A stretch of 64,000 bases of DNA from Rhodothermales bacterium (lineage in GTDB: Bacteria; Bacteroidota; Rhodothermia; Rhodothermales; DASSAV01), in NCBI GenBank assembly GCA_041690215.1, contig JAWLHQ010000008.1:4170-68169 (forward strand), given 5' to 3'. How positions within the stretch are numbered: position 1 is the first letter of the stretch; each line of letters begins with the position of its first letter. This document shows positions 42,341 to 62,405 of the stretch, piece by piece. The notes beneath the pieces are model-generated. The model searched no databases, was not told the origin of the DNA, and saw nothing but the letters and a program-made list of their open reading frames with translations. A program made the translations under genes and the position numbers.

Positions 42341-44113
42341 ATGGAATTTGACTGGCAAGCCTGGTTTACCGCCGGTGTAGCGATTATTGTTGTCATTGCC
42401 CTGATCAGGGAGGTTGCCCGTCCGGACCTGATCCTGCTGGGTGGTCTTGCTCTGCTACTTCTGACTGGCATATTGACACCCGAACAAGCATTCGCCGGAT
42501 TTGCCAATCCAGCCATGCTCACCGTGGCTGCACTCTTCGTTGTTGCGAATGGCGTAGAGCGGACGGGCGCACTACGATTTCTAGATTACGCCCTGACTTC
42601 CGGCTCAGCAGGAGTGCCCCGGATCATCACGAGAATGATGTCATCCACGGCGCTTTTATCGGCATTCCTGAACAACACAGCTGTGGTTGCGATGTTGACG
42701 CCTCGCATCCAGAGTTGGGGTAAAAAGAATGGCGTCCCCCCCTCAAAACTCCTCATCCCACTCTCTTATGCAGCCATCCTCGGTGGGATGACGACCCTTA
42801 TCGGAACCTCGACGAATATCATCGTTTCCGGCCTATTGGAGGCGGGAGGCCATCACGGCCTGGGCATGTTCGACCTGACATGGATAGGCATCCCCGCCGT
42901 GATACTCGTCATGATCTACTTTATCATTCTCGGACACCGCCTTCTTCCTGACCATAGTCATGAGGAACAGCAGTTCAAAGATGGGCTAGAAAACTGCCTC
43001 TTCGAAGTGCGTGTCGCCTCTGGCTCTCCTTTCATCGGCCGCTCTATCGCCGACTCTGGATTACGTGCACTTGGTGATGCCTACCTGGCTCACATCCGGC
43101 GGCACGGTGAACTCATTCCGGTTACACCCCGAGAAATATTGCGACGGGGTGACGTGCTCGTCTTTGTCGGAAGTGCAGCATCCCTGGATCGCCTGCTTCA
43201 GATGCCGGGCCTGGAACGCACCATCGCTGCCGTGGCCGACAATGATCGTATGACGCTGCCGCTCTACGAGGCCGTCGTTGCACCGACATCGAAGCTAGTG
43301 GGCCGGACCCTTCGGGAAGCATCCTTTCGCGAGAACTATCAGGGAGTGGTGCTCGGCATTCAGCGAAAAGATGAACAAATTACGGAATCGCTCGGGCGCA
43401 TCCCGATCAAAGCCGGTGACCTCTTGCTGGTAGAAGCCTGGAACGGGTTCGATAAACGTTGGAATGAAAACCGGGAAGAGTTTTACCTGGTGGCCCCCCG
43501 TAGGCCACAACAAGAAAAGGTGCTTACCGCAAAGGCACCTGTGGCCCTGGCCATACTCTTGGCTATGATCGTGGCATTTTCTACAGGTATCGTACCTCTC
43601 GTAACCAGCGCTCTGGCTGCTGCGCTGGCCATGATCGTGACACGATGCCTCCGGGGACGAGAGGCGCGAGAGGCAATCGACGTGCCACTACTCGTAGTTA
43701 TCGCATCGGCATTTGGCGTGGCTGCTGCACTCGAAAAAACGGGCGTTGCGGCCGCAATTGCTTATTCGATATCCAGCCACGCTGATGCTTTCGGACCACT
43801 CGGCGTACTGGCAGCCATCTATATCACGACGAATCTCTTAACAGAGTTCTTGACCAATAATGCGGCCGCCATCCTCATGGTACCAATCGCCCTGGCTGCC
43901 GCAGCGGATATCGGGGTGGATGCAACGCCTTTTGCCGTTGCTGTAGCCGTAGCCGCGTCTTCCTGTTTCATGATACCTATCGGGTATCAGACCAACCTCA
44001 TGGTTATGGCTGCTGGCGGCTACCGCTTCTCGGACTATATTCGAGTAGGCTTTCCGGTTAGCCTGCTGGTTTTCATTACGGCCATGACAATGATCTATCT
44101 TGTATGGTTCTGA
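42341..44113 (+). CDS. SLC13/DASS family permease with TrkA-C domains (putative sulfate transporter)
   Basis: SAFLNNTAVV, GGMTTLIGTSTN, two RCK_C domains, TNNAAA, PIGYQTN motifs; adjacent to cysD/cysN. Confidence 0.92.
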   Translation: MEFDWQAWFTAGVAIIVVIALIREVARPDLILLGGLALLLLTGILTPEQAFAGFANPAMLTVAALFVVANGVERTGALRFLDYALTSGSAGVPRIITRMMSSTALLSAFLNNTAVVAMLTPRIQSWGKKNGVPPSKLLIPLSYAAILGGMTTLIGTSTNIIVSGLLEAGGHHGLGMFDLTWIGIPAVILVMIYFIILGHRLLPDHSHEEQQFKDGLENCLFEVRVASGSPFIGRSIADSGLRALGDAYLAHIRRHGELIPVTPREILRRGDVLVFVGSAASLDRLLQMPGLERTIAAVADNDRMTLPLYEAVVAPTSKLVGRTLREASFRENYQGVVLGIQRKDEQITESLGRIPIKAGDLLLVEAWNGFDKRWNENREEFYLVAPRRPQQEKVLTAKAPVALAILLAMIVAFSTGIVPLVTSALAAALAMIVTRCLRGREAREAIDVPLLVVIASAFGVAAALEKTGVAAAIAYSISSHADAFGPLGVLAAIYITTNLLTEFLTNNAAAILMVPIALAAAADIGVDATPFAVAVAVAASSCFMIPIGYQTNLMVMAAGGYRFSDYIRVGFPVSLLVFITAMTMIYLVWF

Positions 44114-44174
44114 GATCCTAAGATTTAACCTGCCCGAATACGCTAGCACAACGTCACCTGTACCGGTGTTGACC

Positions 44175-45107
44175 ATGACTACAATACTCCAAGAGAACCC
44201 TGTGAAGCCCGACCTGAGCGCCCACTTGAAGTGGCTGGAGAGGGAGGCGATCTACGTCATGCGCGAGGTTGCCGCCCAGTTCGAAAAACCCGTTTTGCTG
44301 TTTTCGGGTGGAAAAGACTCTATCTGCCTCGTGCGCCTCGCGCAGAAGGCCTTCTGGCCAGGCAAGATTCCGTTCCCGCTCCTGCATATCGATACCGGCC
44401 ACAACTTCCCGGAGACACTGGAATTCCGCGATCAACTGGTAGAACGGCTGGGCGCGAGGCTCATCGTTCGAACGGTGCAGGAATCCATTGATAAGGGTCG
44501 CGTAGTAGAGGAGACCGGGCCAGAGGCCAGCCGCAACGCACTCCAGATCGTCACGCTCCTCGACGCAATCAAGGAGCTTGGCTGCGATGCTGCCATCGGC
44601 GGAGCGAGGCGTGATGAGGAAAAGGCGCGGGCGAAGGAGCGCTTCTTCTCGCACCGGGACCGGTTCGGCCAGTGGGATCCTAAGAACCAGCGGCCTGAAC
44701 TTTGGAACCTCTACAACGGCCGAAAGAATGTCGGCGAGCACTTCCGCATCTTCCCTCTGAGCAACTGGACGGAAATGGACGTCTGGCAGTACATCCATCA
44801 GGAGCGTATTGATATTCCCAGCATCTATTTCTCGCACGAGCGTGAAGTGTTCAGACGCAACGGCGTCCTACTCGCCAAATCGGATTACGTAACGCTTCTT
44901 GATGGCGAATACTATGAAAAGCGTATCGTTCGCTTCCGTACTGTTGGTGATATGACGTGCACGGGCGCTGTGGAATCGACAGCCTCTACGCTTGAGGACA
45001 TCATTGCCGAAGTGGCGGCCGCGCGCGTGACAGAGCGAGGCGGCCGCGCGGACGACAAGCGCTCAGAAGCCGCCATGGAAGATCGCAAGCGACGTGGCTA
45101 TTTCTGA
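44175..45107 (+). CDS. cysD: Sulfate adenylyltransferase subunit 2
   Basis: LEREAIYVMREV, LLFSGGKDS, GGARRDEEKARAKER, VRFRTVGDMTCT; ATG 44175 preferred. Confidence 0.96.
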   Translation: MTTILQENPVKPDLSAHLKWLEREAIYVMREVAAQFEKPVLLFSGGKDSICLVRLAQKAFWPGKIPFPLLHIDTGHNFPETLEFRDQLVERLGARLIVRTVQESIDKGRVVEETGPEASRNALQIVTLLDAIKELGCDAAIGGARRDEEKARAKERFFSHRDRFGQWDPKNQRPELWNLYNGRKNVGEHFRIFPLSNWTEMDVWQYIHQERIDIPSIYFSHEREVFRRNGVLLAKSDYVTLLDGEYYEKRIVRFRTVGDMTCTGAVESTASTLEDIIAEVAAARVTERGGRADDKRSEAAMEDRKRRGYF

Positions 45108-45228
45108 TCGCCTCTCTGTCGATGATCACGCATTCCGTCATTCCGCCCCCAGATGACGGTTGCCCAGCACCAGAGGGGTACCTCTCTGGATGGTCCCTAT
45201 ACTGCCAAGTTTCCTCTTTACTTCCATT

Positions 45229-47127
45229 ATGGACTTACTTCGATTTTCAACAGCCGGAAGCGTGGATGATGGCAAGAGCACGCTAATCGGCCGGCTCCTC
45301 TACGACGCGAAGTCGATCTTTGAGGACCAGCTCGATGCCATTCAGCGCTCCAGCGAACTCCACGGCAACGGCCATATCAACCTTGCTCTCCTGACGGATG
45401 GTCTTCGAGCCGAACGGGAACAGGGGATCACGATCGATGTCGCCTACCGTTACTTCGCCACCCCAAAGCGTAAGTTCATCATCGCCGACACGCCCGGCCA
45501 CGAGCAATACACGCGAAACATGGTGACCGGCGCCTCTACGGCAGAGCTCGCCATCGTTCTCGTCGACGCGCGAAAAGGCGTACTGACACAGTCGCGACGG
45601 CACGGCTTCATCGCCTCCCTCCTACAGATTCCCCATATGGTCGTAGCCGTCAATAAGATGGACCTCGTCGACTACTCGGAGGAGGTGTACCAGGCAATCG
45701 TAGATGAATACGAGGCGTTCGCGCAAAAACTCGAGATCAAGAACATCACCTTCATACCGATTTCCGCCCTCGAAGGAGACAACGTCGTCGAGAAAAGCAC
45801 CAGAATGCCCTGGTATAACGGCCCGACACTTCTTCATTTCCTCGAGACCGTGAAGGTCGGCGCCGAGCGAAACGTGGTCGACTTCCGCTTCCCGGTGCAG
45901 TACGTCGTCCGGCCAAATCAGGACTTCCGTGGCTTTGCTGGGCAGGTTGCCTCCGGCAGCATCACGCCGGGTGAGGAGGTACTGGTGCTCCCATCCGGAA
46001 TGACGACGCGGGTTAAGTCCATCGTCACCTTCGAGAAGGAGGAACAGGAAGCTCAAACGGAGGAGAATGTCATCATCACGCTTGAAGATGAGATTGAACT
46101 GAGCCGGGGAGGAATGATCGTTCGAAGCCGAAACCGGCCCACGATAACGACGACTATCGATGTCGATCTGTGCTGGATGAGCGAAGAGCCTATGCATCCG
46201 GATAAGCTCTACGTACTCCAGCATACGACGCGGCAGGTTTCCGCGTATGTATCCAAGATCATTTACCGGCTCGACGTCAACACCCTCCACCGTGAACCAT
46301 CAGAACGGTTCGAACTCAACGACATCGGGCGTGTCGAAGTCAAAGCCACGCAACCCATCTTCGTCGACCCCTATAAGATCAACCGCCGCACGGGAGCCTT
46401 CATCCTCATCGACCCTGACACCAACACCACCGTTGCGGCCGGAATGATCCGCGGCGTAGCTCAGGACGTCGAACCGGTAGGCGGTACGCAGGTGGAGAGC
46501 CGTACGAAGTCTCCCGACGTCGTATGGGAAGGGTTCAACCTCGCTCGTGAGGAGCGTGAGCGTCGCAACGGACACAACGCCGCGATTCTGTGGTTCACTG
46601 GCCTTTCGGGCTCAGGCAAGACCACGATTGCTCGTGCCCTGGAAAAACGCCTGTTTGATCGGAACTGCCAGACCATGCTCCTGGATGGGGACCACCTCCG
46701 CCATGGGCTATGCAGTGACCTGGGCTTCTCGCCCTCCGACCGGGCAGAAAACATCCGGCGTGTCGGCGAGGTTTCCCGCCTTTTCTTTGAACACGGCAAC
46801 ATCACGCTCTGCACCTTTATCTCTCCCTACCGCAGCGACCGTGATTTCGTCCGTTCGCTCATGCCTGAAGGCAGGTTCTTCGAGATTTTCGTCGATTGCG
46901 ACCTCGAGGTTTGCAAGGAGCGCGATCCGAAAGGGCTCTACCAGAAGGTGAAGGCAGGGCAGATCGAGAACTTCACGGGTATCTCTGCCCCTTACGAACC
47001 TCCGACCAATCCTGACCTCATCTTGCCGTCTGACAAGCAAACAGTGGCCGAAAGCGTCGAGATGCTCATAAAGCTCCTTGAGGAACGCGGCATCTTGCCT
47101 GCTTCCGGTGCGGATGGAACTCGATAG
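45229..47127 (+). CDS. cysNC: Bifunctional sulfate adenylyltransferase subunit 1 / APS kinase (CysN/CysC)
   Basis: TAGSVDDGKSTLIGRLL, REQGITIDVAYRYF, DTPGHEQYTRNM; C-terminal WFTGLSGSGKTT and LDGDHLR APS kinase domain. Confidence 0.96.
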   Translation: MDLLRFSTAGSVDDGKSTLIGRLLYDAKSIFEDQLDAIQRSSELHGNGHINLALLTDGLRAEREQGITIDVAYRYFATPKRKFIIADTPGHEQYTRNMVTGASTAELAIVLVDARKGVLTQSRRHGFIASLLQIPHMVVAVNKMDLVDYSEEVYQAIVDEYEAFAQKLEIKNITFIPISALEGDNVVEKSTRMPWYNGPTLLHFLETVKVGAERNVVDFRFPVQYVVRPNQDFRGFAGQVASGSITPGEEVLVLPSGMTTRVKSIVTFEKEEQEAQTEENVIITLEDEIELSRGGMIVRSRNRPTITTTIDVDLCWMSEEPMHPDKLYVLQHTTRQVSAYVSKIIYRLDVNTLHREPSERFELNDIGRVEVKATQPIFVDPYKINRRTGAFILIDPDTNTTVAAGMIRGVAQDVEPVGGTQVESRTKSPDVVWEGFNLAREERERRNGHNAAILWFTGLSGSGKTTIARALEKRLFDRNCQTMLLDGDHLRHGLCSDLGFSPSDRAENIRRVGEVSRLFFEHGNITLCTFISPYRSDRDFVRSLMPEGRFFEIFVDCDLEVCKERDPKGLYQKVKAGQIENFTGISAPYEPPTNPDLILPSDKQTVAESVEMLIKLLEERGILPASGADGTR

Positions 47128-47307: not shown

Positions 47308-48051
47308 TCAGGTAGCAACGGCAGACGTGTTTGCCGCCACCCAGCGAGCAGCAAACTGGAGCAAATCGTTTTTGCTGTGTAAGCTCAGTTTCTCCTTGAT
47401 ATGGCGCCGGTGCATATCTACAGTCTTGGTCTTTACGTGCAGACTCTCTGCAATCCGGCTGCTACTCCAACCCTGCCCCAGAAGAACAAATACCTCCTTT
47501 TCTCGAGGAGTGAGCAAATCAACAAAGAACCCCCCCTCCCCTTTCCCGCTGATGGCGAGTACCTGGGATGTAATGGCACGACTGAGAAAGACATTCCCTC
47601 GGAGCACGGCTCGAATGGCCTCGATGACCCGTTCGGCGGATTCCGATTTCATTACGTAAGCCGAGGCTCCCGCCCGCACGACACGTTCGGCATACACCAT
47701 CTCATCGTGCATGGAGTAGACCACCACACGGGGTGGTGATGCAAGCTTCTGCAGATCGCGAATAAGGTCAAGACCATACGTATCTCCGAGCGAGAGATCG
47801 ACAACGGCCACCTCGGGAGATACCTCGGTCGCAAGCCGGATCGCTTCGGCTGCAGAAGTGGCTTTGCCACACACCTGGAGATCAGGAGCATCACCTACGA
47901 GTTCTGCAAGTGCATCGAGAATAACAGGGTGGTCGTCCACCAGGAGCACCCTTGCGTTGAAGGTGAAGGCGCCTGGATCGGAGAACCTCCGAACATCCGA
48001 GATGCTGGGTCGGTGCGCCTCACGGCGCGGCAAGACACTCGACATTACCAT
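47308..48051 (-). CDS. NarL/LuxR family response regulator
   Basis: VLLVDDH, VAVVDLSL receiver; LTPREKEVFVLLGQG...IAESL...TVDMHRRHIKEKL HTH. Confidence 0.93.
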   Translation of the reverse strand: MVMSSVLPRREAHRPSISDVRRFSDPGAFTFNARVLLVDDHPVILDALAELVGDAPDLQVCGKATSAAEAIRLATEVSPEVAVVDLSLGDTYGLDLIRDLQKLASPPRVVVYSMHDEMVYAERVVRAGASAYVMKSESAERVIEAIRAVLRGNVFLSRAITSQVLAISGKGEGGFFVDLLTPREKEVFVLLGQGWSSSRIAESLHVKTKTVDMHRRHIKEKLSLHSKNDLLQFAARWVAANTSAVAT

Positions 48052-49258
48052 CGATTCCCTCTCTGAAACTTGCGGGCTTCTACCATGGAAACCGAGCTGC
48101 CAGGGTTGCTTTCCACCTCCGCACTGTCTTCGTGAGGATTGACTAATCCGTTTCGTACGATGTATTACGATGACACATGTGCATCGCTACCGCTCACTGG
48201 CTTACCTGCCTGAGTACAGCGCATTTGTTTAATACCAGCCTGCCACCATTTGACGTTTCCATGCTCTTGCCCACGCGAATGAAAGAAAAGAGATAACCTC
48301 ACCTCTGGCAGCCGCCTGTCTATATTCAATATGTAGCATAGTAAAGGCAATAACACACTTGTAATGAACTCGTCCCCTTGAGTCCGCATCGTACGCGGCA
48401 CTGCCCGCTTCTGCCCTACAAAGCAGAGGTTGAAACAGGGGAACGACTCCACTGCGTACAAGCCATTTCAGGCCCAACTTTGCAATAACGGATCTAAGTC
48501 AGGATAAAGGTCCGAGATGCACTTTGAGACACCCTGATGTCTCCCGGATCGCTGTCCCCCTTCGCATTGCCCGAAGTGTCGCTTGTGAACACCTGTTTGC
48601 GCACTAGGACATAGGTTGGTGGGACTCGCTACCCCCCTGTAATCCGGAACGAACAAGATCATCCGAGGTCCAGCTGACTCAGATTACCTGCTCTCAAGCA
48701 GATCACGGCACGACAGTCTTTGCCCCTGGCTGACTGCGACCCTGGGCAGTCATGCAATCACTCACGCAGTTCGGATAGCCTGGATTGGCTTCGAGATTGC
48801 CTGGTCTCCAAGATTAGGGCACGTCATCAAGGAGGTGACGCCTCATTAGAACTCTCCAGACAACTTATGAGGATAAGTTTATAAAATTCAGATGCCTACA
48901 CAGCCCCTTCTCTCCCCGGCAATGACCTCAGATTTGTACCACCCCGGAAACTTGAATGCTGAAGGAGGCGCTCAGGATGATTCAAAAGTAAATTGATAGT
49001 CTGGATTTTTTCCCAAACTCGTGTTATAACTTGCACAGCATACTACTCATGGGCACAGCCCTGCCCTGGACCAGAACACCACATGAATGCGCCTTAAGCG
49101 ACGATGCAGAACGCCTGATGTACTGAAGTACTATCCTATGCACTGCTTAATCTGTCTGCCAAGGAAAACCAGAGAGTCCTATTGTTGGCCAGGTATGATG
49201 ATGTTTCCTACAACAATATGGATGGACTAACAGCCTACTAACCATTCGAGAGGTACAT

Positions 49259-49636
49259 ATGAATGAGACTCAGCAGAACCCGGAAACGCAGCAGGAGTCG
49301 TCCGTGGCCGGCAAATCTACTGTAACCCGGCGAGCCATTCTGAAAGCAGGGTGGGTAGCACCCGTCGTTCTGGCCGTTCCGCTCATGGGTACAGGAAAAG
49401 CGGGACATATTCCTCCTCATGGAAGCAGCTATACCCCTGGCAGCAAGGACTACGGAAGCAAAGGTTGGGGTAGCAATGGCTGGGGTAGCAAAGATTACGG
49501 AAATGGCAGTAAGGATTACGGGACAGGTAGCAAAGACTACGGAAGAGGCAGCAAGGATTACGGCAGGGGCGGCAAGAATTACGGGAACTGGGGCAAGGGC
49601 AGCAAGTGGTGGACTAGCTGGATAAAGTGGGATTGA
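49259..49636 (+). CDS. Putative RiPP precursor / secreted repeat peptide with twin-arginine leader and GSKDYG repeats
   Basis: GAGG RBS; leader TRRAILKAGWVAPVVLAVPL; core with five GSKDYG and one GGKNYG; followed by RRE and kinase genes. Confidence 0.75.
   Translation: MNETQQNPETQQESSVAGKSTVTRRAILKAGWVAPVVLAVPLMGTGKAGHIPPHGSSYTPGSKDYGSKGWGSNGWGSKDYGNGSKDYGTGSKDYGRGSKDYGRGGKNYGNWGKGSKWWTSWIKWD
49439..49588 (+). repeat. Coding 21-bp tandem repeat (GSKDYGx)
   Basis: Five adjacent 21-nt units at 49484-49588 plus an 18-nt copy at 49439-49456; variation is mostly synonymous. Confidence 0.9.
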
Positions 49637-49678
49637 TTAGGCCTTTAAAACCTGCATTGAGTTCATAATCACAACGTA

Positions 49679-49699
49679 AAGCTGAGTCTTTTTCAGCTT
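49679..49699 (+). terminator. Small hairpin between precursor and RRE gene
   Basis: AAGCTGA-GTCTTTT-TCAGCTT; weak U tract, so may only stabilise mRNA. Confidence 0.3.
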
Positions 49700-49701
49700 G
49701 T

Positions 49702-50010
49702 ATGTTAATGGAGTTTCTGAAGGCGAGACCCTCCCGAGCAGCTGGCGTAGTTAGCATGGACGTGCTTGAGGAGAAGGTCCTTTTCCATCCGGCGAGGCAA
49801 GAGGCCATTTCACTGAATGTCTCTTCTGCGGCAATATGGGATTTGTGTGACGGAACGCGTACCGTGGCTGAGATCGGACACGAACTGTCGGAATGGGCCG
49901 GAGCGCCGGAATCGGATGTACTCGCGGATGTAGAGCGAATCGTGAAGCAATTCTCAGAACTCTCGCTCTTGCATATCGATACCGCGAACCAGATTGGAGA
50001 GGACGCGTGA
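49702..50010 (+). CDS. PqqD family RiPP recognition element (RRE)
   Basis: EKVLFHPARQEAISLNVSSAAIWDLCDGTRTVAEIGHEL...DVERIVKQF...LL PqqD signature. Confidence 0.9.
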   Translation: MLMEFLKARPSRAAGVVSMDVLEEKVLFHPARQEAISLNVSSAAIWDLCDGTRTVAEIGHELSEWAGAPESDVLADVERIVKQFSELSLLHIDTANQIGEDA

Positions 50011-50867
50011 GATCAGTATCGAAGGTCGCGCGCGGTCGTGTTTGTCTGCGCTTCCTGGACTACGATGTAACAGTAGTCTCGTCCATCGAAAGTGTTCTTC
50101 AGCGCGTAGCATTCGGTTTTCGTCGGATGCTACGCGCTGATATACCAGACTCGTCTTTTGAGCTCGAGATAAGAGAAGAACACGGTCGGTATGAATTGCT
50201 GAGAAACGGAGAGCTACTTGCATCCTACTCTGATCTCTTCGAGGCCAAAACCGTCCTACGCCACGAGATCAACCGCGCATTCATTTACGCATACCCGGAA
50301 TTCTTGTGGATGCACGCCGGAGCAGTTGCCGGCAAGGACCGCGCAGCGCTCTTCGTCGGAATCTCTGGCCGGGGCAAGAGTACACTCATCACGACCCTAT
50401 GCCAGCAGGGCTTTCGCTATCTCTCCGACGACATTATTCCGCTTGATCCCGCGACAGGCAAGGCGATCCCCTACCCTATGACACCGATCGTCCGGGAGAA
50501 TATCGGGCAGGAGTTGCCTCCAGAACGTGTCGAGGAGATACCCAGGACTTTGGTTGAGTTGCCGGAGAGCACCTATTGCCGAGAACCGGTCAGTGTCGGG
50601 TCAGTGATCCTTCCCGCCTACTCGACAAAATGCCAGGCACGAATACTTCCGTTCTCACCCGGCACAACTACGCTGGACCTCGTCAAGCAATGCATCAATG
50701 CACGCGTGCATGGAGCCTCAGCCGTTACATTCATGGCCGAGTTAACCGCTTCAGTGCCCGTACTGCCCATCGAATACTCGGATGCCCAAAGCGCTGCTAA
50801 TCTGGTAAGCCGTGTGCTCAACGAATCGAGTCCTGCTACATACTCGAGCATCGGACCGGCTGCGTAA
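50007..50867 (+). CDS. HPr-kinase-related P-loop kinase
   Basis: GTG start overlapping the RRE stop; WMHAGAV...LFVGISGRGKSTL...FRYLSDD motif. Confidence 0.85.
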   Translation: MRSVSKVARGRVCLRFLDYDVTVVSSIESVLQRVAFGFRRMLRADIPDSSFELEIREEHGRYELLRNGELLASYSDLFEAKTVLRHEINRAFIYAYPEFLWMHAGAVAGKDRAALFVGISGRGKSTLITTLCQQGFRYLSDDIIPLDPATGKAIPYPMTPIVRENIGQELPPERVEEIPRTLVELPESTYCREPVSVGSVILPAYSTKCQARILPFSPGTTTLDLVKQCINARVHGASAVTFMAELTASVPVLPIEYSDAQSAANLVSRVLNESSPATYSSIGPAA

Positions 50868-50884
50868 CGGAAGCAATCCACCCC

Positions 50885-51361
50885 TCACTCACGGCCCAGA
50901 TCCCTGATAATCGTAATCCCGTCAGGAACATAGGTTGAAGGTCCACTGACCTGAGACACGAAAATGCGTGCTGGCCGGCTGAATCTGGTTGAGACCAGCA
51001 CCAGCACGATTTCCTCGTCAGCACGAAGACCATCTATCGCCTCTGTCATACTATCATCGCCCCATACGGCCAGGGCGAAGTTTTCGCCTGCAAAGGGGTC
51101 ACTCTTCCCTGCGCAAATACCATCCGGAGAGAAGGTGTACAGGACATCACCGGCGCGAAAAACCTCTAATGCATCATCGACCACGAACAGGGAATGATTG
51201 CTCTCTCCTCCGGATGTGCACGCTCCCACATTCCAGTCCTCCTTAAACTCAGTTCGAGGCATGGGCCCATCATCTCCTACTGAGCTCTCGGAAGATTCTA
51301 CATGATCACATCCGGTCAGGATGAGCAAGAACAATGACAGCAGGAGGAAGCGGTCGTACAC
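50885..51361 (-). CDS. Lipoprotein, paralogue of 36432..36947
   Basis: LTGC lipobox; GDVLYTFSPDGICAGKS...FALAVWGDDSMT...DG module. Confidence 0.7.
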   Translation of the reverse strand: MYDRFLLLSLFLLILTGCDHVESSESSVGDDGPMPRTEFKEDWNVGACTSGGESNHSLFVVDDALEVFRAGDVLYTFSPDGICAGKSDPFAGENFALAVWGDDSMTEAIDGLRADEEIVLVLVSTRFSRPARIFVSQVSGPSTYVPDGITIIRDLGRE

Positions 51362-51553
51362 GGGTGATTGGTAGCTTCTGTCGATACGACACAGCCGCTA
51401 GTAGGGGTGGCTCTAGGGTGCGCCAATATAAGACCGGATCCAATATCAACAAGAACGCCTCCTTGATATGCGCTTGTGCCCCGTCTTTCCACCAGCAAGA
51501 GCTCAAGGCTCGATACGACTGACAAGCATGCGCACATGCTGCGCATATGGGCG

Positions 51554-51769
51554 TTAGTTGCTCACCGGCAAGATACGCATTGCACGAAATGCTAACTCTG
51601 CCTCTATGGTATGCAGAGCCTCTTCGATCTGCATACGTAGCCCACTTGTCACGTAGGACGAGTATGCCCGAATAGCCTCTAGGATGTCGATATAGTCGTT
51701 TTTGGTCTGTATGAGTGCAGATTCGGTGACATAGCCGATCTCGAAGGGAACGAAGGGATTAGGACGCAT
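51554..51769 (-). CDS. Small helical protein, paralogue of 39545..39754
   Basis: 71 aa from ATG 51769 (MRPNPFVPFEIGY...); ungapped alignment with the 39545..39754 product. Confidence 0.5.
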   Translation of the reverse strand: MRPNPFVPFEIGYVTESALIQTKNDYIDILEAIRAYSSYVTSGLRMQIEEALHTIEAELAFRAMRILPVSN

Positions 51770-51971
51770 GGCCGGTCGCTCAGAAACACGACTAACAGGT
51801 GGGGTACTTACCTGCACATCAGCTTTGCAAGGAACGGGCCAAGTGATTGTAATACAATAAACTTGCGCAATCGCACATGTCACGTTGACGTGCGTTGCCT
51901 CTACCCATGAGTAGCGACTCTCACCAAACGATTGGTGCATTAGCTGGTGACCAACCTGAAGCCCCAGTCCA

Positions 51972-52208
51972 TTAATGTGCCTCGGGATTGCGGATCTCAG
52001 ACCGAGTCAAGCGTGCCGAGTATCGCGTGAGTTGCGCTGGCGTCCCTTGTGCAACCTCCTTGTCGATACGACGCGTTTTCGTTTCATTCGATGTGGCTCT
52101 GGCACTCCGGGCAGCAGTCTGGTGGCGTACGTAGTTCAGCCAGATTGCGAGAATTGAAAACGCGACGAGGAGAACGACAAAAGCGATTCCGAGAGCGTCC
52201 AGCAGCAT
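51972..52208 (-). CDS. Small single-TM protein
   Basis: 78 aa; N-terminal TM helix followed by a basic tail. Confidence 0.4.
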   Translation of the reverse strand: MLLDALGIAFVVLLVAFSILAIWLNYVRHQTAARSARATSNETKTRRIDKEVAQGTPAQLTRYSARLTRSEIRNPEAH

Positions 52209-52578
52209 GGCGGTTCCGATCTCGTGAGGTGCGGCTTCTTCCTACCTGCTGGCCGGATACGCCATTCCGGACAAGGCAGTCAACACCACAAAGTACGCAC
52301 TGCGTATCTAGATACTAGCAGATCCGCTGTAACAGGGTTGTTATGCAGCTAGATGGACCATGTGTTTTGAAGCTTGACACAGCGTTGCCAGGTCGTATCC
52401 GTTATCGCCTGCATACTCGGCCACCGCAAACTCCAGAGTCACGTCAGATCGCGTGGCAATAAGGATGTGCGCTCAGTGCTGCACCGGTTGATGCTAGCTT
52501 ACTCTGGAGGACGAAGCGATACGGCAGTCAGAATGGTCTCACGGCTCAATACGCGCTGCGAAGCTACCGACCGGAGAC

Positions 52579-54432
52579 TCAGAATACTTCCTCGTGCATC
52601 TGCTGCCTCCAAGACGTTGCATAACGACCGTTCTGCCGCAAAAGCTCTTCGTGGGTACCCGACTCAACCACCCTCCCTTCGTCCATGACGTGAATGATGT
52701 CGGCGCGCATAGCGGTTGTGAGGCGGTGCGTAACGATGATTGCCGTCCGCCCGTGCACCAGGCTGTGGAACCGCTCCAGCCATTGGTGCTCGGCCCAGGA
52801 ATCCATTGCGCTCGTCGGCTCATCGAGAATCACAATGGGAGCCTGTCTGAAGAAAGCTCGTGCTAGTGCGACGCGCTGCCACTCTCCACCGCTGAGCTCC
52901 GTTCCGTCCCAGAACCACTTACCCAACTGAGCGTCGTACCCGTACTTCAGTCGCTCGATCACACCGTGGGCGCCAGCCTTCTTCGCTGCCCTCCTGACCA
53001 GTTCTCTTGAAGATGGCGACTGCAGGTTTCCTATCTCTATGTTACGAGCAGCCGTCTCGTGATAGTGGACCGGATCTTGAAACAGGACTGTAATCATGCG
53101 TCGCAACTCATCGACAGGAAAGCGGCGCATGTCCATATCGTCCAGCTCGACTCGTCCTTCCTCTGGATCATAGAATCGGCACAACAGCTTGATCAGCGTG
53201 CTTTTTCCGGCACCATTGGATCCAACGATAGCAACCGTCTGACCGGCAGGAATCGTCAGGTTGAACCGTTGAAGGGCGGCCCGATCCGCGCCCGGATAAC
53301 GGAATGTCACATCCCTGAATCGTATACCCTTCTTGAGCACAGCAGGGACAGGCACAGGCTGAGGTGGATCTTCGATTTTCGAGGGCAGCTCAAGAAACTC
53401 GAAGAGATTACCAAGAAACAGGCTATTGCTGTAGATACGCCCGAGATTGTTCATGAGCGTCCGCATCAAACCCTGCCCCTGGTTGAAAGCCTGGTAAAAG
53501 AGCGCCACGTCACCCAGCGTAGCAGTTCCTTGCATGATTCTGCCGACCATCCACCCCAGAATACTGATCGTCACGGCCAGCGCGAAGATGCTCGCACCCA
53601 GGCTAACGAAGCTCTGATCCCTCACGAGCTTCAAATGCTCGCCCCGGAGTCGTTTGCGAAGCGCCTGATATGCTTCGCTGTACAGCGGTCCAAGCTGGAA
53701 CAGCCGCATTTCCGCCGCCACCGAACTGGCAGAAATGATCCAATCAAAGTAGTCGGCTCTACGCTGGTCGAGCGTCGTCTGCTCCCACCACGTATGGTAG
53801 CAATTATGAAAGTAAAGGACCACGAACACGGCCGGGCCGAGGCTCAGCATCAGAACAAGCGGAACCCAGACCCCATACCGGATCAGCACCCCTGCAATAG
53901 CGAGCAACGTGACCATGTTCTGAACGACCCCGCCGACATTCTCGACAAGTTCCAAAGGACGGGTATCAGCGCTCTCACGGGCCCGGTGCAGACGGTCGTA
54001 ATTTTCCGAGGCCTCGAAGAACGCCAGATCTACCATGTAAGACTTCTTGTGGACGAGGGCACTGACGTGGTCCCGCACCAGCGCAGCCTGCGCCGTACGG
54101 ACCCACGTACTCGCATTCTGCAGCAACTCCTTCAGGAGCAATACGCCTACCATAAGTAGCGCCGGAACCAGGATGATGCGGAGCGTCTCTGGGCTCATGC
54201 CAACACCGATGATCGACGTCAGACTATCCACCAGCATCTTTGTCAGATACACCGTTGCCGCGGGAAGCAAGCCCTCTAAGACGAGCAGACTAGCCCATAG
54301 AAGCGTCAGGGCTCCCGACGCAGCAAACACCAAGCGAAGCGCTCCTGCCAGATGGCTCAAGCGTTGCCAGACAGAGCCTCCATTGAGACGGTCACGAACC
54401 AGTGTAATCACGACTGACACTCCGCAAAACAC
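52579..54432 (-). CDS. ABC transporter permease/ATP-binding protein (peptide exporter type)
   Basis: TM domain plus GSNGAGKST, LSGGEWQRVALAR, LDEPTSAMD. Confidence 0.93.
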   Translation of the reverse strand: MFCGVSVVITLVRDRLNGGSVWQRLSHLAGALRLVFAASGALTLLWASLLVLEGLLPAATVYLTKMLVDSLTSIIGVGMSPETLRIILVPALLMVGVLLLKELLQNASTWVRTAQAALVRDHVSALVHKKSYMVDLAFFEASENYDRLHRARESADTRPLELVENVGGVVQNMVTLLAIAGVLIRYGVWVPLVLMLSLGPAVFVVLYFHNCYHTWWEQTTLDQRRADYFDWIISASSVAAEMRLFQLGPLYSEAYQALRKRLRGEHLKLVRDQSFVSLGASIFALAVTISILGWMVGRIMQGTATLGDVALFYQAFNQGQGLMRTLMNNLGRIYSNSLFLGNLFEFLELPSKIEDPPQPVPVPAVLKKGIRFRDVTFRYPGADRAALQRFNLTIPAGQTVAIVGSNGAGKSTLIKLLCRFYDPEEGRVELDDMDMRRFPVDELRRMITVLFQDPVHYHETAARNIEIGNLQSPSSRELVRRAAKKAGAHGVIERLKYGYDAQLGKWFWDGTELSGGEWQRVALARAFFRQAPIVILDEPTSAMDSWAEHQWLERFHSLVHGRTAIIVTHRLTTAMRADIIHVMDEGRVVESGTHEELLRQNGRYATSWRQQMHEEVF

Positions 54433-54462
54433 TTGTGCAGTAAGGCGCGTGGGCCAGGCTGC

Positions 54463-55464
54463 TTACAGGGCCTCCACATCCTTGATGATTTCTGCAGCCA
54501 CGTCAGGAAGGCGGTCCAGTCCATTCGAATAATGAACTCGGCGCACCGAGACTTGTCGCACGAGTTTGGCGAAGAAAGCCAACCGGGTGGACTGCAAACC
54601 GAAAGCCTCCACGAAATACGGAACAAAGGAATGTCGTATCAATTCCTTCATTGCTTCGAGAGGCGACAGGACCTCGATACAAACAAAATCCTCCAACCGG
54701 TCTCTCCGTTCAGGAATGTAGATGCAGGCTAGTGGCTGCGGCGAGGAGCAGAAAGCACCGAAACTGCTCTCCGCGACAGGAACCCAGAGCTTTTCCAGAT
54801 ACGGAAGAACACGGCTCAGGGAATCGACAGGGCCGAGGAAGTGAGCAGCCTGTCCGGGCCACATCCGTAGCCTGGGATAGCCTGGCATGGCCATCACCTC
54901 CCCCCGCGACATGGTAAGCGGTAAGACATCGTCTGTAAGCAAAGGATGCCCTTTGCGCATTAGCGACGTTGCGAGTGAAGTCTTACCGCCCATGTTTGAA
55001 GCAAGGAATCCAATTGCACGACCGGAAATGCTCACCGCGGCAGCATGCAGCGTCGGAGTGCCACGTCGTTCCAGCCAGAAGGACAGCACTGCTCCCAGAA
55101 GGTATTGCTCTACACCTTCCCTACACGCTGCATCGAAAATCTGACACGCGATTCGATCCTGCCACACGTGAAAGTCTGCAATTCCCGTGAGCCGAATGAG
55201 ATCATAATTCGGCCCCCGATATAAATACGCCAGACTCTGCCCTGAATAATTCAGATCGCGGCTGGCGAAGACAAGAGTGAGTTCTTTTGCCAGGTCTCGA
55301 GGATGTGCATCCACAAATGCCGTGACAACCACATCCGGGGCACCCGCGTCGATAGGCTCGAGACATGTGAACTCAAACTCGCTGGCGATGACTAAACCGT
55401 ACAGGGAATACACAACTCTTGCGCTCTTCGGAACAGGGAAGGTATCTGCCTGGCTATGCACCAT
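54463..55464 (-). CDS. HPr-kinase-like lasso peptide kinase (PadeK-like)
   Basis: LHAAAVSISGRAIGFLASNMGGKTSLA...LLTDD...PGYPRLRMW; inside the lasso cluster. Confidence 0.8.
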   Translation of the reverse strand: MVHSQADTFPVPKSARVVYSLYGLVIASEFEFTCLEPIDAGAPDVVVTAFVDAHPRDLAKELTLVFASRDLNYSGQSLAYLYRGPNYDLIRLTGIADFHVWQDRIACQIFDAACREGVEQYLLGAVLSFWLERRGTPTLHAAAVSISGRAIGFLASNMGGKTSLATSLMRKGHPLLTDDVLPLTMSRGEVMAMPGYPRLRMWPGQAAHFLGPVDSLSRVLPYLEKLWVPVAESSFGAFCSSPQPLACIYIPERRDRLEDFVCIEVLSPLEAMKELIRHSFVPYFVEAFGLQSTRLAFFAKLVRQVSVRRVHYSNGLDRLPDVAAEIIKDVEAL

Positions 55465-56641
55465 ATCCTTTTACGAGGAGTCTCTGAGCGAGAAGCTCGT
55501 TTACGAATGCCCGGACATCGTCCTTCAACTGCGATGCATCCACGTCGTATGCCTTGTAGAGGGATGACTCCGCACCGGCAATCGAGCCACTTTCAGCAAC
55601 GGCTTCCCAGATATCGGCAGCAGTCCCCTCCAGCGTGTAACAGGTCTCGGTCTGCAGGTCTCCAATAACGACCTGCCCTTTGAGCCGCCCAAATATTACG
55701 TGCGGAGCCACCTGTAGCGGACCTTTCCCCTCCCGCTGCACCTGCACGACTGGTCGGTTATCCTTGTTCTCAATACGGTTCTTCAGGCACAGCGCTGGAG
55801 CAGCCAGGCGCCAGCCAAGCTCCACTTTCTCCGTAACAGGGTTGATCACCGCGATGTCAGGCTCGCTCCAGGGAAAGCAGAGATGATCCGGCTGACCACT
55901 CCAGTAAAAATCACGCCCCGATACTCCTGCCCACCGCGCCTTCCAGGCAGAATAGTCTTCCTGATGTAGTGCTGGCGCGTGATCGCAAAGATCCCGGGCA
56001 CTCACACAGGCCAGCACGCGCGGCTCGCTGGACTCGATTGCCTTGCGTAGATCCGGGTGTGAGTACAGATGTGCGAAGATGACCTCAGCACCCTCATTCT
56101 GCCGTAGATAATGGTAGAAACGTGTTCCGGAAAGTGCACAATCGTCGATCACCACGCGAGGAACACTTTCTATAGAAGTCATTGACAACTGATCCGGCCT
56201 CAGGCCAAGCGCATAAGCCACCATTCCCAGCACAATAAGTCCTCCACGGGGGATAGCGCAGAACTGGTAGTCATGCAAAGTTGCTTCGCCAAATCGCTCC
56301 ACCAGCCGCTCGGCGAGAAGCTCCGCATCCCGTTCCGCCTGCTCATAACCGACATAACGCAGGTGGGGCAACACGTACTTCAGTTCAGTAGCAAGCGCCT
56401 CGATACGTCCCTCAGCCTCGTTGTCAAAAAAGCCAATAATGCCCAGTTCTGGGGGCAATCCTGGTCGGACGACGAGCACGGAGTCCGGCAATGCGTTCCA
56501 GGCCGGGCTCGAAGCCAGCCCCTCAGCCAGACTCATTAGTACGCGTTCCCTATCCTCCGGCGTGCCTTCAGGATACGGGATCTCCTCCGGCAATGGTAAC
56601 ACATATACCCGAGGTCGAAGCCGCATCCTCATGTCATTCAT
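55454..56641 (-). CDS. Phosphoribosyltransferase-like domain fused to C-terminal PqqD/RRE
   Basis: AIPRGGL and VVIDDCALSGTRF (type I PRTase PRPP loop); C-terminal VVIGDLQTETCYTLEGTAADIWEAV...DDVRAFVNELLAQRLL RRE. ATG 56641 preferred because a terminator hairpin lies upstream (ORF open from GTG 56755). Confidence 0.8.
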   Translation of the reverse strand: MNDMRMRLRPRVYVLPLPEEIPYPEGTPEDRERVLMSLAEGLASSPAWNALPDSVLVVRPGLPPELGIIGFFDNEAEGRIEALATELKYVLPHLRYVGYEQAERDAELLAERLVERFGEATLHDYQFCAIPRGGLIVLGMVAYALGLRPDQLSMTSIESVPRVVIDDCALSGTRFYHYLRQNEGAEVIFAHLYSHPDLRKAIESSEPRVLACVSARDLCDHAPALHQEDYSAWKARWAGVSGRDFYWSGQPDHLCFPWSEPDIAVINPVTEKVELGWRLAAPALCLKNRIENKDNRPVVQVQREGKGPLQVAPHVIFGRLKGQVVIGDLQTETCYTLEGTAADIWEAVAESGSIAGAESSLYKAYDVDASQLKDDVRAFVNELLAQRLLVKGYGA

Positions 56642-56646
56642 CTCGT

Positions 56647-56698
56647 GAAACAAAACCGAGGGATGGCCAGGACCATACAACTGCCTTGGCCACCCCTC
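56647..56698 (-). terminator. Intrinsic terminator/attenuator downstream of the lasso precursor
   Basis: 12-bp arms GAGGGATGGCCA (56658-69) / TGGCCACCCCTC (56687-98), one mismatch that is G-U on the minus transcript, followed on the minus strand by GGTTTTGTTTC. Confidence 0.6.
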
Positions 56699-56759
56699 AG
56701 TACGAAGGCCTCCATGCCCTACAGATTGCGTGGTACAGCCTACCTCGTCATCCACCTGG

Positions 56760-56906
56760 TCAGGACTTCTTCTTGTCGTGGCCAGGCGGGTTGACGCTGC
56801 CCAACTTAAGGTCCGTGCCAGGTCTCGTGAGGCCTACTCCAGTGATGTCACTGACGCTGCCCCACTGCTGCAGCATGGGTCGTGCGTAGAGCTTTTTCTC
56901 CGTCAT
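56760..56906 (-). CDS. Lasso peptide precursor (48 aa)
   Basis: Hand translation MTEKKLYARPMLQQWGSVSDITG-VGLTRPGTDLKLGSVNPPGHDKKKS*; exact YxxPxLxxxGxxxxxT leader; Asp at core position 9; AGGAG RBS; next to the cyclase. Confidence 0.9.
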   Translation of the reverse strand: MTEKKLYARPMLQQWGSVSDITGVGLTRPGTDLKLGSVNPPGHDKKKS

Positions 56907-56940
56907 GACCGATCTCCTAGGTGGGTGGTGAGAGATGAAA

Positions 56941-56961
56941 GTGTATCACATGTCAATACAC
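56941..56961. promoter_or_regulatory. Palindromic operator candidate upstream of the lasso precursor
   Basis: GTGTAT-CACATGTCA-ATACAC; also contains TTGACA on the minus strand (56951-56956). Confidence 0.4.
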
Positions 56962-57062
56962 CATGATAAAATTAGCATCCTGAGTCGCATTCGGGCGACT
57001 AACAAACCCTTCGACCGCCCCCAATTCTGGCTTCTCTTCAATGCGTCTTTTGCTCTGTTACC

Positions 57063-59545: not shown

Positions 59546-59710
59546 GGTGAACCTGTACGTAAAAGGTTGCGAGTACTCCCATGTCGGCATCTCCGGAAGA
59601 TATTGGAGAACCGGAGAATGAGAAGGTGCTCATGCCCGGCAGTTAGATGCGTCCTGAGCCTGGATGGACTTACATCGCTGATCTATGATGCCAACCGCCA
59701 AAACTACATA

Positions 59711-62396: not shown

Positions 62397-62405
62397 ACTA
62401 TATGC

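Follow-up and report, generated by a model that had tools for sequence, protein, structure and literature searches.

The nearest described relatives of the locus analysed here are the Linear Polyphosphorylated Peptides (LPPs; lppA-K-B-S-D-N), which their authors regard as restricted to Bacillota (Popov et al. 2026, Nat Commun 17:6633; PMC13381572). The LPP systems involve: leader-dependent phosphorylation of a linear precursor by LppK together with LppB; building of a phosphate chain by the kinase on one Ser, as in paeninodin-type lasso peptides; and export via an MsbA-like pump (PMC13381572). Thr and Tyr are not accepted by LppK. The leaders of LPPs and lasso peptides carry an experimentally defined RRE-binding motif, [Y/W]xxPx[L/V/I/F/A], whose aromatic residue lies at -16 in LppA and at -15 in PbaA (PMC13381572). 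A first-pass annotation had proposed the present locus as a candidate new class; the LPPs, described in 2026, are a precedent for RRE-guided HprK kinases acting on linear precursors (PMC13381572).

Gene content of the locus

Positions 49259-50867 (forward strand) of the window, the whole 64,000-nucleotide stretch of DNA analysed, hold a set of three genes, which encode a 125-aa protein, a PqqD-type RRE and an HprK-like P-loop kinase:

49259..49636, + strand: putative precursor (substrate) gene; ORF of 125 aa with polar n-region, Tat-like leader, GSKDYG repeat core and Trp-rich tail
49325..49345, + strand: twin-arginine motif T23-R-R-A-I-L-K29; RR invariant in all aligned homologues
49352..49369, + strand: W32-V-A-P35-V-V37, predicted RRE-binding site; WxxPx[V/I] motif within the hydrophobic region
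49439..49585, + strand: repeat core G61-G109; five GSKDYG, GWGS units, one GGKNYG
49604..49633, + strand: Trp-rich C-terminal tail KWWTSWIKWD; W..WIKW[DN] invariant in four homologues
49674..49705, + strand: hairpin between the precursor and RRE genes, overlapping the RRE start codon; fold z = -1.54, not significant
49702..50010, + strand: discrete PqqD-type RRE, 102 aa; Pfam PqqD, E 1.9e-14
50007..50867, + strand: HprK-like P-loop kinase, 286 aa from GTG 50007; TIGR04352, E 5.4e-22
50358-50384, + strand: P-loop GISGRGKST of the kinase gene
50424-50432, + strand: SDD motif of the kinase gene

The ORF call reproduces the 125-aa protein as first annotated: its leader reads TRRAILKAGWVAPVVLAVPL, its core holds GSKDYG in five exact copies along with GWGS units and a single GGKNYG, and KWWTSWIKWD forms the tail. 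The same annotation placed a PqqD/RRE gene before an overlapping HprK-like gene; both genes stand, with a correction to the kinase start. The long ATG ORF (49893) overlaps the PqqD gene by 118 nt. Alignment of kinase homologues begins at GTG 50007, most likely the start codon on this comparison, and the true overlap would therefore be 4 nt (GTGA coupling). The intergenic hairpin is a weak candidate attenuator: it was not flagged by a terminator scan, and Rfam, promoter and terminator scans of 48000-52600 returned nothing credible.

The kinase scores 78.2 bits against TIGR04352, below the curated cut-off of 200, and also matches TIGR00679. Residues H103, G121-T126, S140-D142, R163 and H235 are invariant across eight kinase homologues, and an AF2 model (pLDDT 86) matches the folds of ATP-dependent PEP carboxykinase and HprK/P (1JB1, 1KKL, 3TQF). 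For the RRE model (AF2, pLDDT 77), a fold search returns as best structural matches the leader-bound lasso RREs TbiB1 (5V1U/5V1V) and FusB1 (6JX3), with TM 0.67-0.82. PDB sequence searches with either protein gave nothing useful, and a scan with the kinase gave only a spurious Clostridia match.

Two kinase-bearing lasso clusters lie next door, one of which adjoins the unit at 54463-60889 and has its own RRE and kinase. The lasso precursors in the window have leaders with YxxPxL, not WxxP, and the Asn-synthase homologues come with these YxxPxL precursors of their own. The RRE of the unit has no significant similarity to the lasso-cluster RRE, and the kinase (HprK1) is 38% identical to the kinase of a Rokubacteria cassette, as compared to 26% over a partial alignment with the neighbouring lasso kinase. 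Judged by these sequence comparisons, the unit's kinase and RRE are a lineage apart from the lasso enzymes next door. An N-terminal domain shared by the L055 RRE fusion and the RRE fusion of the window's lasso cluster was considered and rejected, as the two have none in common. Gene types corresponding to LppD and LppN both occur within 13 kb, inside the lasso clusters: there are two MsbA-like ABC exporter genes, and a PF14907 nucleotidyltransferase gene lies 9 kb from the unit. Pfam detects no peptidase domain among the ORFs scanned between 47308 and 63974, nor in the loci L001, L039 and L075.

The core of the 125-aa protein is a tandem repeat (Tandem Repeats Finder: period 21, 4.7 copies; period 42, 1.9 copies with 89% matches). 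Among the five GSKDYG units every variable site is a third-position synonymous one, with zero non-synonymous changes. The synonymous divergence from which selection on the peptide had been argued is real in this respect; part of the pattern reflects duplication of a two-unit block, visible in the period of 42. The coding status of the ORF is borne out by three homologues, P0001-P0003, which differ in repeat number but retain both the leader and the WIKW[DN] tail; analogous Trp-rich ends occur in other members (P0076, P0172, L075, L076). No Pfam or NCBIfam model matches the precursor, in agreement with the first-pass remark that no described family with this core was known. A scan of genome contigs with the precursor alignment drew repeat patterns only, and a phylum-wide scan with the full precursor returned only low-complexity noise; the GSKDYG core is therefore of very narrow distribution. 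The unmodified core is basic (pI 9.6), so the 'polyanionic' peptide of the first pass would need heavy phosphorylation. The adhesive or mineral-binding role suggested with it is speculation.

The leader and its family

The precursor leader, TRRAILKAGWVAPVVLAVPLMGTGKA, has an N-terminal segment that resembles a Tat signal, comprising: TRRAILK; a short Pro/Gly-containing hydrophobic stretch, AGWVAPVVLAVPLMG, with a mean Kyte-Doolittle hydropathy of 1.8; and the small residues G46-K-A48. TRRAILK matches the Tat consensus S/T-R-R-x-F-L-K, and 137 of 165 wider-family members have S or T as the residue before RR. Consistent with the Tat idea of the first-pass annotation, the same genome carries tatC (TIGR00945, 178.6 bits, above the cut-off); export itself we infer.

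Embedded in the leader is a second element, a WxxPxV motif (WVAPVV) of the type to which lasso-type RREs bind. Of 168 family members, 165 carry a WxxPx[V/I]-type motif, the aromatic residue being W in 152 and Y in 13 and the last position V or I in 159, and family-wide the aromatic residue is most often 17 residues N-terminal to the AxA site. Downstream of the hydrophobic region, 125 of 165 members have a strict AxA, about 17 of these being the internal AAPA of Salinibacter-type leaders, and the arrangement of RR motif, hydrophobic region and AxA is conserved family-wide. The commonest residue after this site is Q, and at the second residue Y is as frequent as S. The window leader has no classical AxA, reading GTGKA/G with only G46-K-A48, so the cleavage predicted there, after A48, is a guess.

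In a set of 1.84 billion representatives, a profile of the leader matches 144 proteins at E <= 1e-3; every one is 48-314 aa long and none is a large Tat enzyme. These amount to at least 144 clusters at 50% identity, from Rhodothermales including Salinibacter, from Rokubacteria and from many metagenomic lineages. The leader is conserved as [S/T]RRALxxAGWxxPV[I/V]LAV...AxA. The cores are hypervariable, with HxD repeats, DYG repeats, Cys pairs or IDW repeats, and have no Ser, Thr or Tyr position in common.

The search proposed at first pass, for RRxxLKxGWxAP-type leaders beside PqqD and HprK, finds them across several phyla, and this recurring linkage supports the reading of precursor, RRE and kinase as one functional unit. 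A PqqD gene and an HprK/ScmC-like gene occur together in 10 of the 11 neighbourhoods examined; the eleventh (L060) has PqqD genes and no recognisable HprK, and a 553-aa protein considered there as an RRE-kinase fusion was rejected for want of similarity to the kinase. The order precursor-PqqD-kinase is repeated in L001, in G467 and in G448, which is of the same genus and has a wholly different core (IDWSK repeats). The trio returns in other Rhodothermales too, among them Salinibacter ruber, in which a PqqD-kinase fusion lies beside a leader-bearing peptide, and the linkage is also found on Rokubacteria and metagenome contigs (L055, L056/57, L058, L061 and L062, and two more). Relatives of the kinase give weak matches to Pfam ScmC (PF27840).

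Co-occurrence points the same way. A strong leader match is present in 11 of the 151 genomes of the order, all of them among the 16 that have this kinase clade, and in 0 of the 135 genomes without it (Fisher p = 3e-13; 2e-7 by genus), although these counts are phylogenetically non-independent, representing about 7 genera in 3 families. The association extends to genomes in which the peptides are encoded apart from the PqqD-kinase pair.

Proposed modification, export and alternatives

Taken in aggregate, these data favour, with moderate confidence, a leader-guided peptide-modification module that combines RRE docking, Ser phosphorylation, Tat export and signal peptidase I; its chemistry, acceptor site and export route we infer. 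In the cytoplasm, the discrete PqqD-type RRE would bind W32-V37 as an added beta-strand and hand the downstream core to the HprK-like kinase, which would move phosphate from ATP to a serine. Next, the modified protein would be exported via the general Tat system, and its leader would be cut off by the housekeeping signal peptidase I. Removal of the leader by this enzyme, as proposed, would account for the module's lack of a dedicated protease or transporter. The mature product would be a disordered peptide of ~77 aa in which Gly, Ser, Lys, Asp, Tyr and Trp are abundant and whose Trp-rich tail may anchor it at a membrane or cell surface.

The precedents of LppK and PadeK make an oligophosphate on a single Ser more likely than one phosphate per repeat Ser. 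The phosphorylation of every repeat Ser (or Tyr) envisaged at first pass lacks support: no Ser/Tyr repeat is common to the other family cores (HxD, Cys pairs, IDW), which makes the repeat an unlikely candidate for the conserved acceptor, and Tyr is rejected by LppK. A mass series of n x 80 Da would be no proof of modification at every repeat, since LPPs and paeninodin carry their phosphate chain on one Ser. One candidate acceptor is S56, an invariant residue of HGSSY close to where leader and core meet.

The acceptor residue, and even the chemistry, could differ from those of LppK, and the neighbouring MsbA-like ABC exporters could replace Tat in export. The alternative built on these points retains RRE binding as proposed. 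Phosphorylation would then be a first step to nucleotidylation or glycosylation by the PF14907 nucleotidyltransferase, or Tyr, Thr or His would be modified, or an MsbA-like ABC exporter would act with another protease and the Tat look would be incidental. A PF14907 gene comes directly after that of the kinase in the majority of cassettes (L055, L056, L061, L062, G467), and the HxD-type cassettes also carry a radical SAM enzyme and a methyltransferase. A pump is part of LPP clusters, two such genes lie near the unit, and Y equals S in frequency just after the AxA site. Against this, the minimal loci L001, G448 and Salinibacter lack both nucleotidyltransferase and ABC exporter genes beside the PqqD-kinase pair, the ABC genes of the window sit inside the two lasso clusters, and homologous loci contain no dedicated protease or exporter. 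Family-wide conservation of the RR, hydrophobic and AxA elements is also hard to square with an incidental Tat look. We consider this alternative rather unlikely.

The 125-aa protein could instead be an ordinary Tat-secreted low-complexity protein, with the PqqD protein and kinase serving other substrates such as the neighbouring lasso precursors. The proximity of two kinase-bearing lasso clusters would fit such a division of labour, as would one family of the order in which leader-bearing Cys2 peptides adjoin no PqqD gene. It is made improbable by several observations: the lasso cluster is equipped with its own RRE and kinase; the lasso leaders have YxxPxL; leader and kinase clade co-occur completely in the genome sample; the leader profile matches only small proteins; and the trio is kept without lasso genes nearby in G448 (contig C364), Salinibacter and L055-L062. 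A single supercluster with the lasso genes was rejected for the same reason, the unit being separate from them in G448 and elsewhere.

Tat signal peptides are known to be bound by certain chaperones, and the RRE-binding motif lies inside the hydrophobic region of the signal peptide, so RRE binding and Tat engagement should exclude each other; the PqqD protein might thus be mainly a proofreading chaperone (cf. TorD, DmsD) that holds the protein from export, with the kinase-like protein being regulatory or using ATP for release and no covalent modification taking place. This is very improbable, because the kinase catalytic motifs are conserved, a disordered repeat peptide offers no cofactor or folding step to proofread, and all characterised pairs of RRE and HprK modify their peptide (PMC13381572).

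Returning to the phosphorylation-and-Tat module, its wider form is an evenly balanced proposition: the locus would belong to an undescribed but widespread class, made up of exported peptides and small proteins, in which a genuine Tat signal peptide doubles as the RiPP leader. Its embedded WxxPx[V/I] motif would recruit an RRE and HprK-like pair, sometimes encoded elsewhere and serving several dispersed precursors. The general Tat system and signal peptidase I would replace a dedicated protease and pump, and RRE binding would delay export until modification is complete. A search of the literature on Tat or twin-arginine combined with RiPP, RRE or HprK found no description of this leader family. 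If the proposal holds, the logic of RRE plus HprK for linear phosphopeptides reaches well beyond Bacillota, a second and simpler solution to leader removal and export borrows the Tat pathway and signal peptidase I, and a signal peptide that doubles as RRE docking site joins RiPP biosynthesis to the proofreading of protein export. The hypervariability of the cores, which range from Gly/Ser/Lys/Asp/Tyr repeats and His-x-Asp repeats to Cys pairs, suggests unexplored roles outside the cytoplasm, such as metal binding or surface association.

Comparison with known systems

Bufferins are MNIO-modified RiPPs whose precursors have Sec signal peptides. As in the module proposed here, a general-secretion signal peptide forms the N-terminal extension, modification precedes export and signal peptidase cuts the leader. 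In contrast to that module, they use Sec and not Tat, MNIO/DUF2063 and not RRE plus kinase, and contain Cys-derived heterocycles in place of phosphorylation.

The NCBIfam HPr-rel-A system (kinase A, TIGR04352; PqqD family chaperone, TIGR04353) and SynChlorMet (ScmC/ScmD) are likewise uncharacterised pairs of HprK-like and PqqD-like proteins, for which no substrate is known to have been defined. TIGR04352 is the best NCBIfam match of the kinase. The scores nevertheless set the unit apart: TIGR04352 gives 78 bits where its curated cut-off is 200, ScmD gives 23.7 where it is 100, and TIGR04353 gives no match.

Phosphorylated lasso peptides (paeninodin, PadeK/ThcoK; pseudomycoidin, PsmK/PsmN) resemble the unit in having HprK-like kinases that act leader-dependently on a precursor, and an RRE of the B1-type fold. 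The homologous units, unlike lasso clusters, have no macrolactam synthetase (C) or B2 protease. The precursor here is also distinct: it is 125 aa long, lacks both a Thr at -2 and a ring-forming Asp/Glu pattern, and ends in Asp or Asn, not Ser.

The LPPs share most with the locus, namely: a precursor of 35-200 aa that is linear and not cyclised, its N-terminal leader conserved and its C-terminal part hypervariable; an RRE of the PqqD type, encoded with it as a discrete protein (LppB there); the RRE motif [Y/W]xxPx[hydrophobic], 15-17 residues ahead of the cleavage site; an HprK-like kinase (LppK there); a frequent PF14907 nucleotidyltransferase; a kinase-bearing lasso cluster alongside, whose leader has the other aromatic residue (Y as against W); and leader removal by signal-peptidase-type chemistry, which is presumed here. 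Unlike an LPP cluster, the unit has no SipW-like archaeal-type signal peptidase gene (LppS) and no dedicated pump, and Tat export with signal peptidase I most likely takes the place of that machinery. The leader is of the Tat type, [S/T]RRALxxAGWxxPV...AxA, whereas the LPP consensus is YxxPxVLxHQxIxFETxxS, whose HQxIxFET segment it lacks. The hosts are Rhodothermales, Rokubacteria and others, and phosphorylation is proposed here by analogy. The aromatic residues are reversed, the linear peptide having W and the lasso leaders Y, and the pairing of WxxP and YxxP leaders side by side in this genome gives a second natural instance of the principle of Y/W discrimination reported for LPP and paeninodin, with roles exchanged. 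The docking motif within its putative export signal places the trio in a large relative of the LPPs that is apparently undescribed.

Organisation of the precursor, RRE and kinase genes

The genes and flanking regions of the unit, from 5' to 3', are as follows.

44100-47127, +: sulfate adenylyltransferase genes (CysD-like plus a CysN/CysC fusion) just upstream, probably ordinary sulfur assimilation
47308-48051, -: LuxR-type response regulator, diverging from the next stretch; its homologue in G448, a genome of the same genus, adjoins a lasso-cluster ABC gene
48052-49258: 1.2 kb 5' of the precursor lacking a convincing ORF, GC 0.51-0.52 vs 0.55-0.58 nearby, with no Rfam match and no clear sigma-70 promoter
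49259-49636, +: precursor ORF, 125 aa
49702-50010: PqqD-family RRE (Pfam E 1.9e-14)
from GTG 50007: HprK-like kinase (HprK1)
50885-51361, -: 158-aa lipoprotein-like ORF
51554-51940, -: 128-aa ORF
52579-63974, -: first of two tandem kinase-bearing lasso-type clusters

The polar N-terminus of the precursor is followed by T23-RRAILK and the hydrophobic stretch AGWVAPVVLAVPLMG. The core contains five exact GSKDYG units together with GGKNYG and GWGS units, and ends in the tail KWWTSWIKWD; the leader, repeats and Trp-rich tail described in the first-pass annotation agree with the ORF list and the raw sequence. The core is predicted to be basic (pI 9.6), with 11 Ser, 7 Tyr, 7 Trp and 10 Lys. Nucleotide differences among the GSKDYG units, previously taken to imply selection on the peptide, are indeed confined to synonymous third positions. 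Tandem Repeats Finder reports two periods (21 at 4.7 copies; 42 at 1.9 copies, 89% matches), so part of this pattern reflects duplication of a two-unit block.

Among 5.8 billion proteins, the precursor has only three close homologues, in which the leader and W..WIKW[DN] tail are retained while GSKD[YW]G units differ in number. No relatives of the core were found in ~400 genomes of the phylum, and no Pfam or NCBIfam model covers the precursor or its family members. Trp-rich C-terminal ends recur on otherwise unrelated cores (window 49604-49633, L075, L076 7713-8027, P0076, P0172, P0075 and P0131), with examples including KWWTSWIKWD, NVKWSWVTKSWFS, KKKPWWWRLLFWI, RWSWWGW and HHYDRLWW. These may be membrane- or surface-anchoring elements, or sorting elements.

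The kinase ORF matches TIGR04352 (E 5.4e-22; 78 bits, under the curated cut-off of 200) and, more weakly, HprK-related kinase B and HPr(Ser) kinase itself. Its homologues align from GTG 50007. The reported overlap with the RRE gene therefore exists, but is the 4-nt GTGA rather than the 118 nt that the longest ATG ORF would imply. The predicted RRE structure (pLDDT 77) resembles TbiB1 and FusB1 (TM 0.67-0.82), lasso B1 proteins whose solved structures include their leaders, and that of the kinase (pLDDT 86) resembles ATP-dependent PEP carboxykinase and HprK/P. Across eight homologues, H103, G121-T126 of the P-loop, S140-D141-D142, R163 and H235 are kept, residues that we take to include the catalytic His, Walker A motif and Asp pair of HprK/P.

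A Tat-signal-like leader family

An alignment of six precursors retrieved 32 proteins, and a 43-column leader profile (E <= 1e-3, 1.84 billion representatives) retrieved 144, every one of 48-314 aa. As no large Tat-dependent enzyme is among these matches, the profile is not simply picking up generic Tat signals. Leader statistics cover 168 members, 165 of them motif-bearing.

Leader and core features of the family
RR + 6-7 residues + [W/Y]xxPx[V/I/L/A/F]: 165/168
Aromatic residue of the motif: W 152/165, Y 13/165
V or I at the last motif position: 159/165
S or T preceding RR: 137/165
Strict AxA downstream of the motif: 125/165 (~17 of these are internal AAPA in Salinibacter-type leaders)
Aromatic residue relative to AxA: -17 in 50 (mode), -16 in 21
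Residue directly past AxA: Q in 53
Second residue past AxA: Y in 34, S in 31
Cores with at least 3 HxD repeats: 71
Cores of [D/E/N/S/G][Y/W]G-repeat type, window included: 14
Cores with at least 2 Cys: 20
Other or short cores: 60

The cores of the 165 members are hypervariable. In the window, the motif spans W32-V37, 17 residues N-terminal of A48. The leader carries every formal element of a Tat signal: [S/T]RRxhh (h, hydrophobic), a short Gly/Pro-containing hydrophobic region and an AxA site, with a basic c-region residue in 48 of 125 leaders. This leader type is distinct, Tat-signal-like in look and apparently undescribed. Given this leader, a tatC gene in the host genome and the finding of no protease or pump at minimal loci, the peptide would be modified in the cytoplasm, exported by Tat, as the first-pass annotation had proposed, and cleaved by signal peptidase I. 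The case for the export step is weaker for the window itself, since it offers no more than G46-K-A48 as a site and the lasso clusters alongside carry two MsbA-like ABC genes.

Linkage of leader, RRE and kinase

One of the three close precursor homologues lies on L001, a 3.9-kb metagenome contig, where the order precursor, PqqD, kinase recurs and the kinase is 75% identical. The best kinase relatives within the order are in two Salinibacter ruber genomes (~3.6 Mb), where the gene after a PqqD-kinase fusion encodes 129 aa, with leader SRRDMLKKSAYAAPAIMTVGSVPAFA and a repetitive, Tyr-rich end. The nearest kinase homologue from outside the order (38% identity) is in a Rokubacteria genome; it follows an RRE fusion and a protein of 148 aa that has the strikingly window-like leader LTRRALIQAGWTLPVVLAVKLPTDAFAQ and a core of His-x-Asp repeats.

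The suggested search for such leaders beside PqqD and HprK genes elsewhere bore out the linkage. Eleven neighbourhoods were examined (window, L001, Salinibacter, L055, the P0008 contig, L056/57, the P0034 contig, L058, L060, L061 and L062), and in 10 of them a PqqD gene is accompanied by an HprK/ScmC-like gene; the exception, L060, has PqqD genes and no recognisable kinase. Many also encode a PF14907 nucleotidyltransferase, and HxD-type cassettes additionally carry a radical SAM enzyme and a ~500-aa methyltransferase. The HxD order (L055, L056/57, L058, P0034 contig) is radical SAM, methyltransferase, precursor, PqqD or ~390-aa fusion, ScmC/HprK-like gene and nucleotidyltransferase. A few genes downstream of the cassette, the P0034 neighbourhood encodes a CusF-like protein and a two-component system; with the His/Asp repeats, this hints at periplasmic metal binding.

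Within the genus, G448 has the three-gene order of the window, with a kinase only 33% and an RRE 45% identical. Its precursor (L075 6972-7592, -) has IDWSKIDW repeats with a Trp-rich end, vs GSKDYG in the window: leader and gene order persist while the core is replaced outright, which suggests a cassette that evolves fast or is exchanged. In G467, another genome of the order, precursor, PqqD and kinase are followed by a nucleotidyltransferase. The two ORFs downstream of the unit are conserved beside it in L001 (59% identity for the lipoprotein-like ORF; 70% over the C-terminal 70 aa of the other). Since G448 and G467 show little or no conservation of them, this probably reflects shared ancestry rather than module membership.

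Genomes of the f10 family of the order encode several leader-bearing Cys2 peptides each, none adjoining a PqqD gene; the cognate PqqD-kinase pair sits at a separate locus with no precursor alongside. At L078-L085 in several of these genomes, the paralogous peptides, some in tandem, have a ~45-aa helical core between two Cys (e.g. ...NTASAMSTVNCDALLERRNMHRKNGDRNSYNDIQAKLDANGCPC), and none is linked to the one cognate pair in its genome (L087, L089). This suggests that one enzyme pair serves several dispersed substrates.

Of 151 genomes surveyed in the order, 16 carry the kinase clade (E <= 1e-30) and 11 a strong leader match, all within those 16; none of the 135 genomes lacking the clade has one (Fisher p 3e-13 by genome and 2e-7 by genus, the counts not being phylogenetically independent). 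Four of the five kinase-clade genomes with no strong match belong to the genus Salinibacter, and in two of these, G252 and G356, a Y-type leader overlooked by the profile adjoins the fusion. The finding is real and beyond chance.

Lasso neighbours and relation to linear polyphosphorylated peptides

The first lasso cluster consists of an ABC transporter, HprK2, a phosphoribosyltransferase-like/PqqD fusion and the precursor MTEKKLYARPMLQQWGSVSDITGVGLTRPGTDLKLGSVNPPGHDKKKS (56760-56906), as well as an Asn-synthase homologue, a CxxCxxCC protein, a second ABC transporter and two further enzymes, a PF14907 nucleotidyltransferase and an EEP-family phosphatase. In the second (G000:C8 past the window; L054 262-3983), HprK3 is accompanied by a second Asn-synthase homologue, a GT4 glycosyltransferase and an ORF of 56 aa with a YEAPEL leader. 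We saw no B2 transglutaminase-type leader peptidase in the two clusters and no sulfotransferase in the island.

HprK1 is 38% identical to cassette kinases of other phyla vs 26% to the neighbouring lasso kinase (partial alignment), and the RREs of unit and lasso cluster share no detectable similarity. In G448, the lasso-cluster homologues and the Tat-leader unit lie on different contigs, with no lasso genes within several kb of the unit. Taken together, these observations argue that adjacency to lasso genes is unnecessary for function; the nucleotidyltransferase is possibly shared.

Linear Polyphosphorylated Peptides (LPP), described in Bacillota, derive from precursors of 35-200 aa with a conserved leader. 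Besides a discrete RRE (LppB) and an HprK-like kinase (LppK), their cluster encodes a nucleotidyltransferase, an MsbA-like pump and a SipW-like signal peptidase (LppS), and it often adjoins a paeninodin-type lasso cluster (Popov et al. 2026, PMC13381572). LppK places up to 4 phosphates on one Ser, S3, and the S3T and S3Y variants are unphosphorylated (PMC13381572).

The first-pass annotation proposed phosphorylation of each Ser or Tyr and likened the product to adhesive or mineral-binding proteins; both ideas are speculative. Here, we infer both the modified residue and even the chemistry. Family cores have no acceptor position common to all; candidates in the window are the Ser residues of the repeats and an invariant one close to the junction, S56 (HGSSY). 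Going by the LppK precedent, a +80 Da ladder could come from one site.

The RREs of both LPP and lasso systems bind [Y/W]xxPx[L/V/I/F/A], with the choice of Y or W keeping the pathways separate and the aromatic residue at -16 in LppA and -15 in PbaA (PMC13381572). The invariant WxxPx[V/I] of the Tat-leader family is the same RRE motif, at -17 from AxA. The Y/W split recurs here with roles reversed: W is in the linear leader, whereas both lasso precursors of the island carry YxxPxL (YARPML at 56760-56906; YEAPEL just past the window). The proposed Tat and signal peptidase I route would be a simpler counterpart of LppS and the pump LppD. The Tat-leader unit is best filed with RRE-plus-HprK linear-peptide systems, a group whose sole characterised example is LPP.
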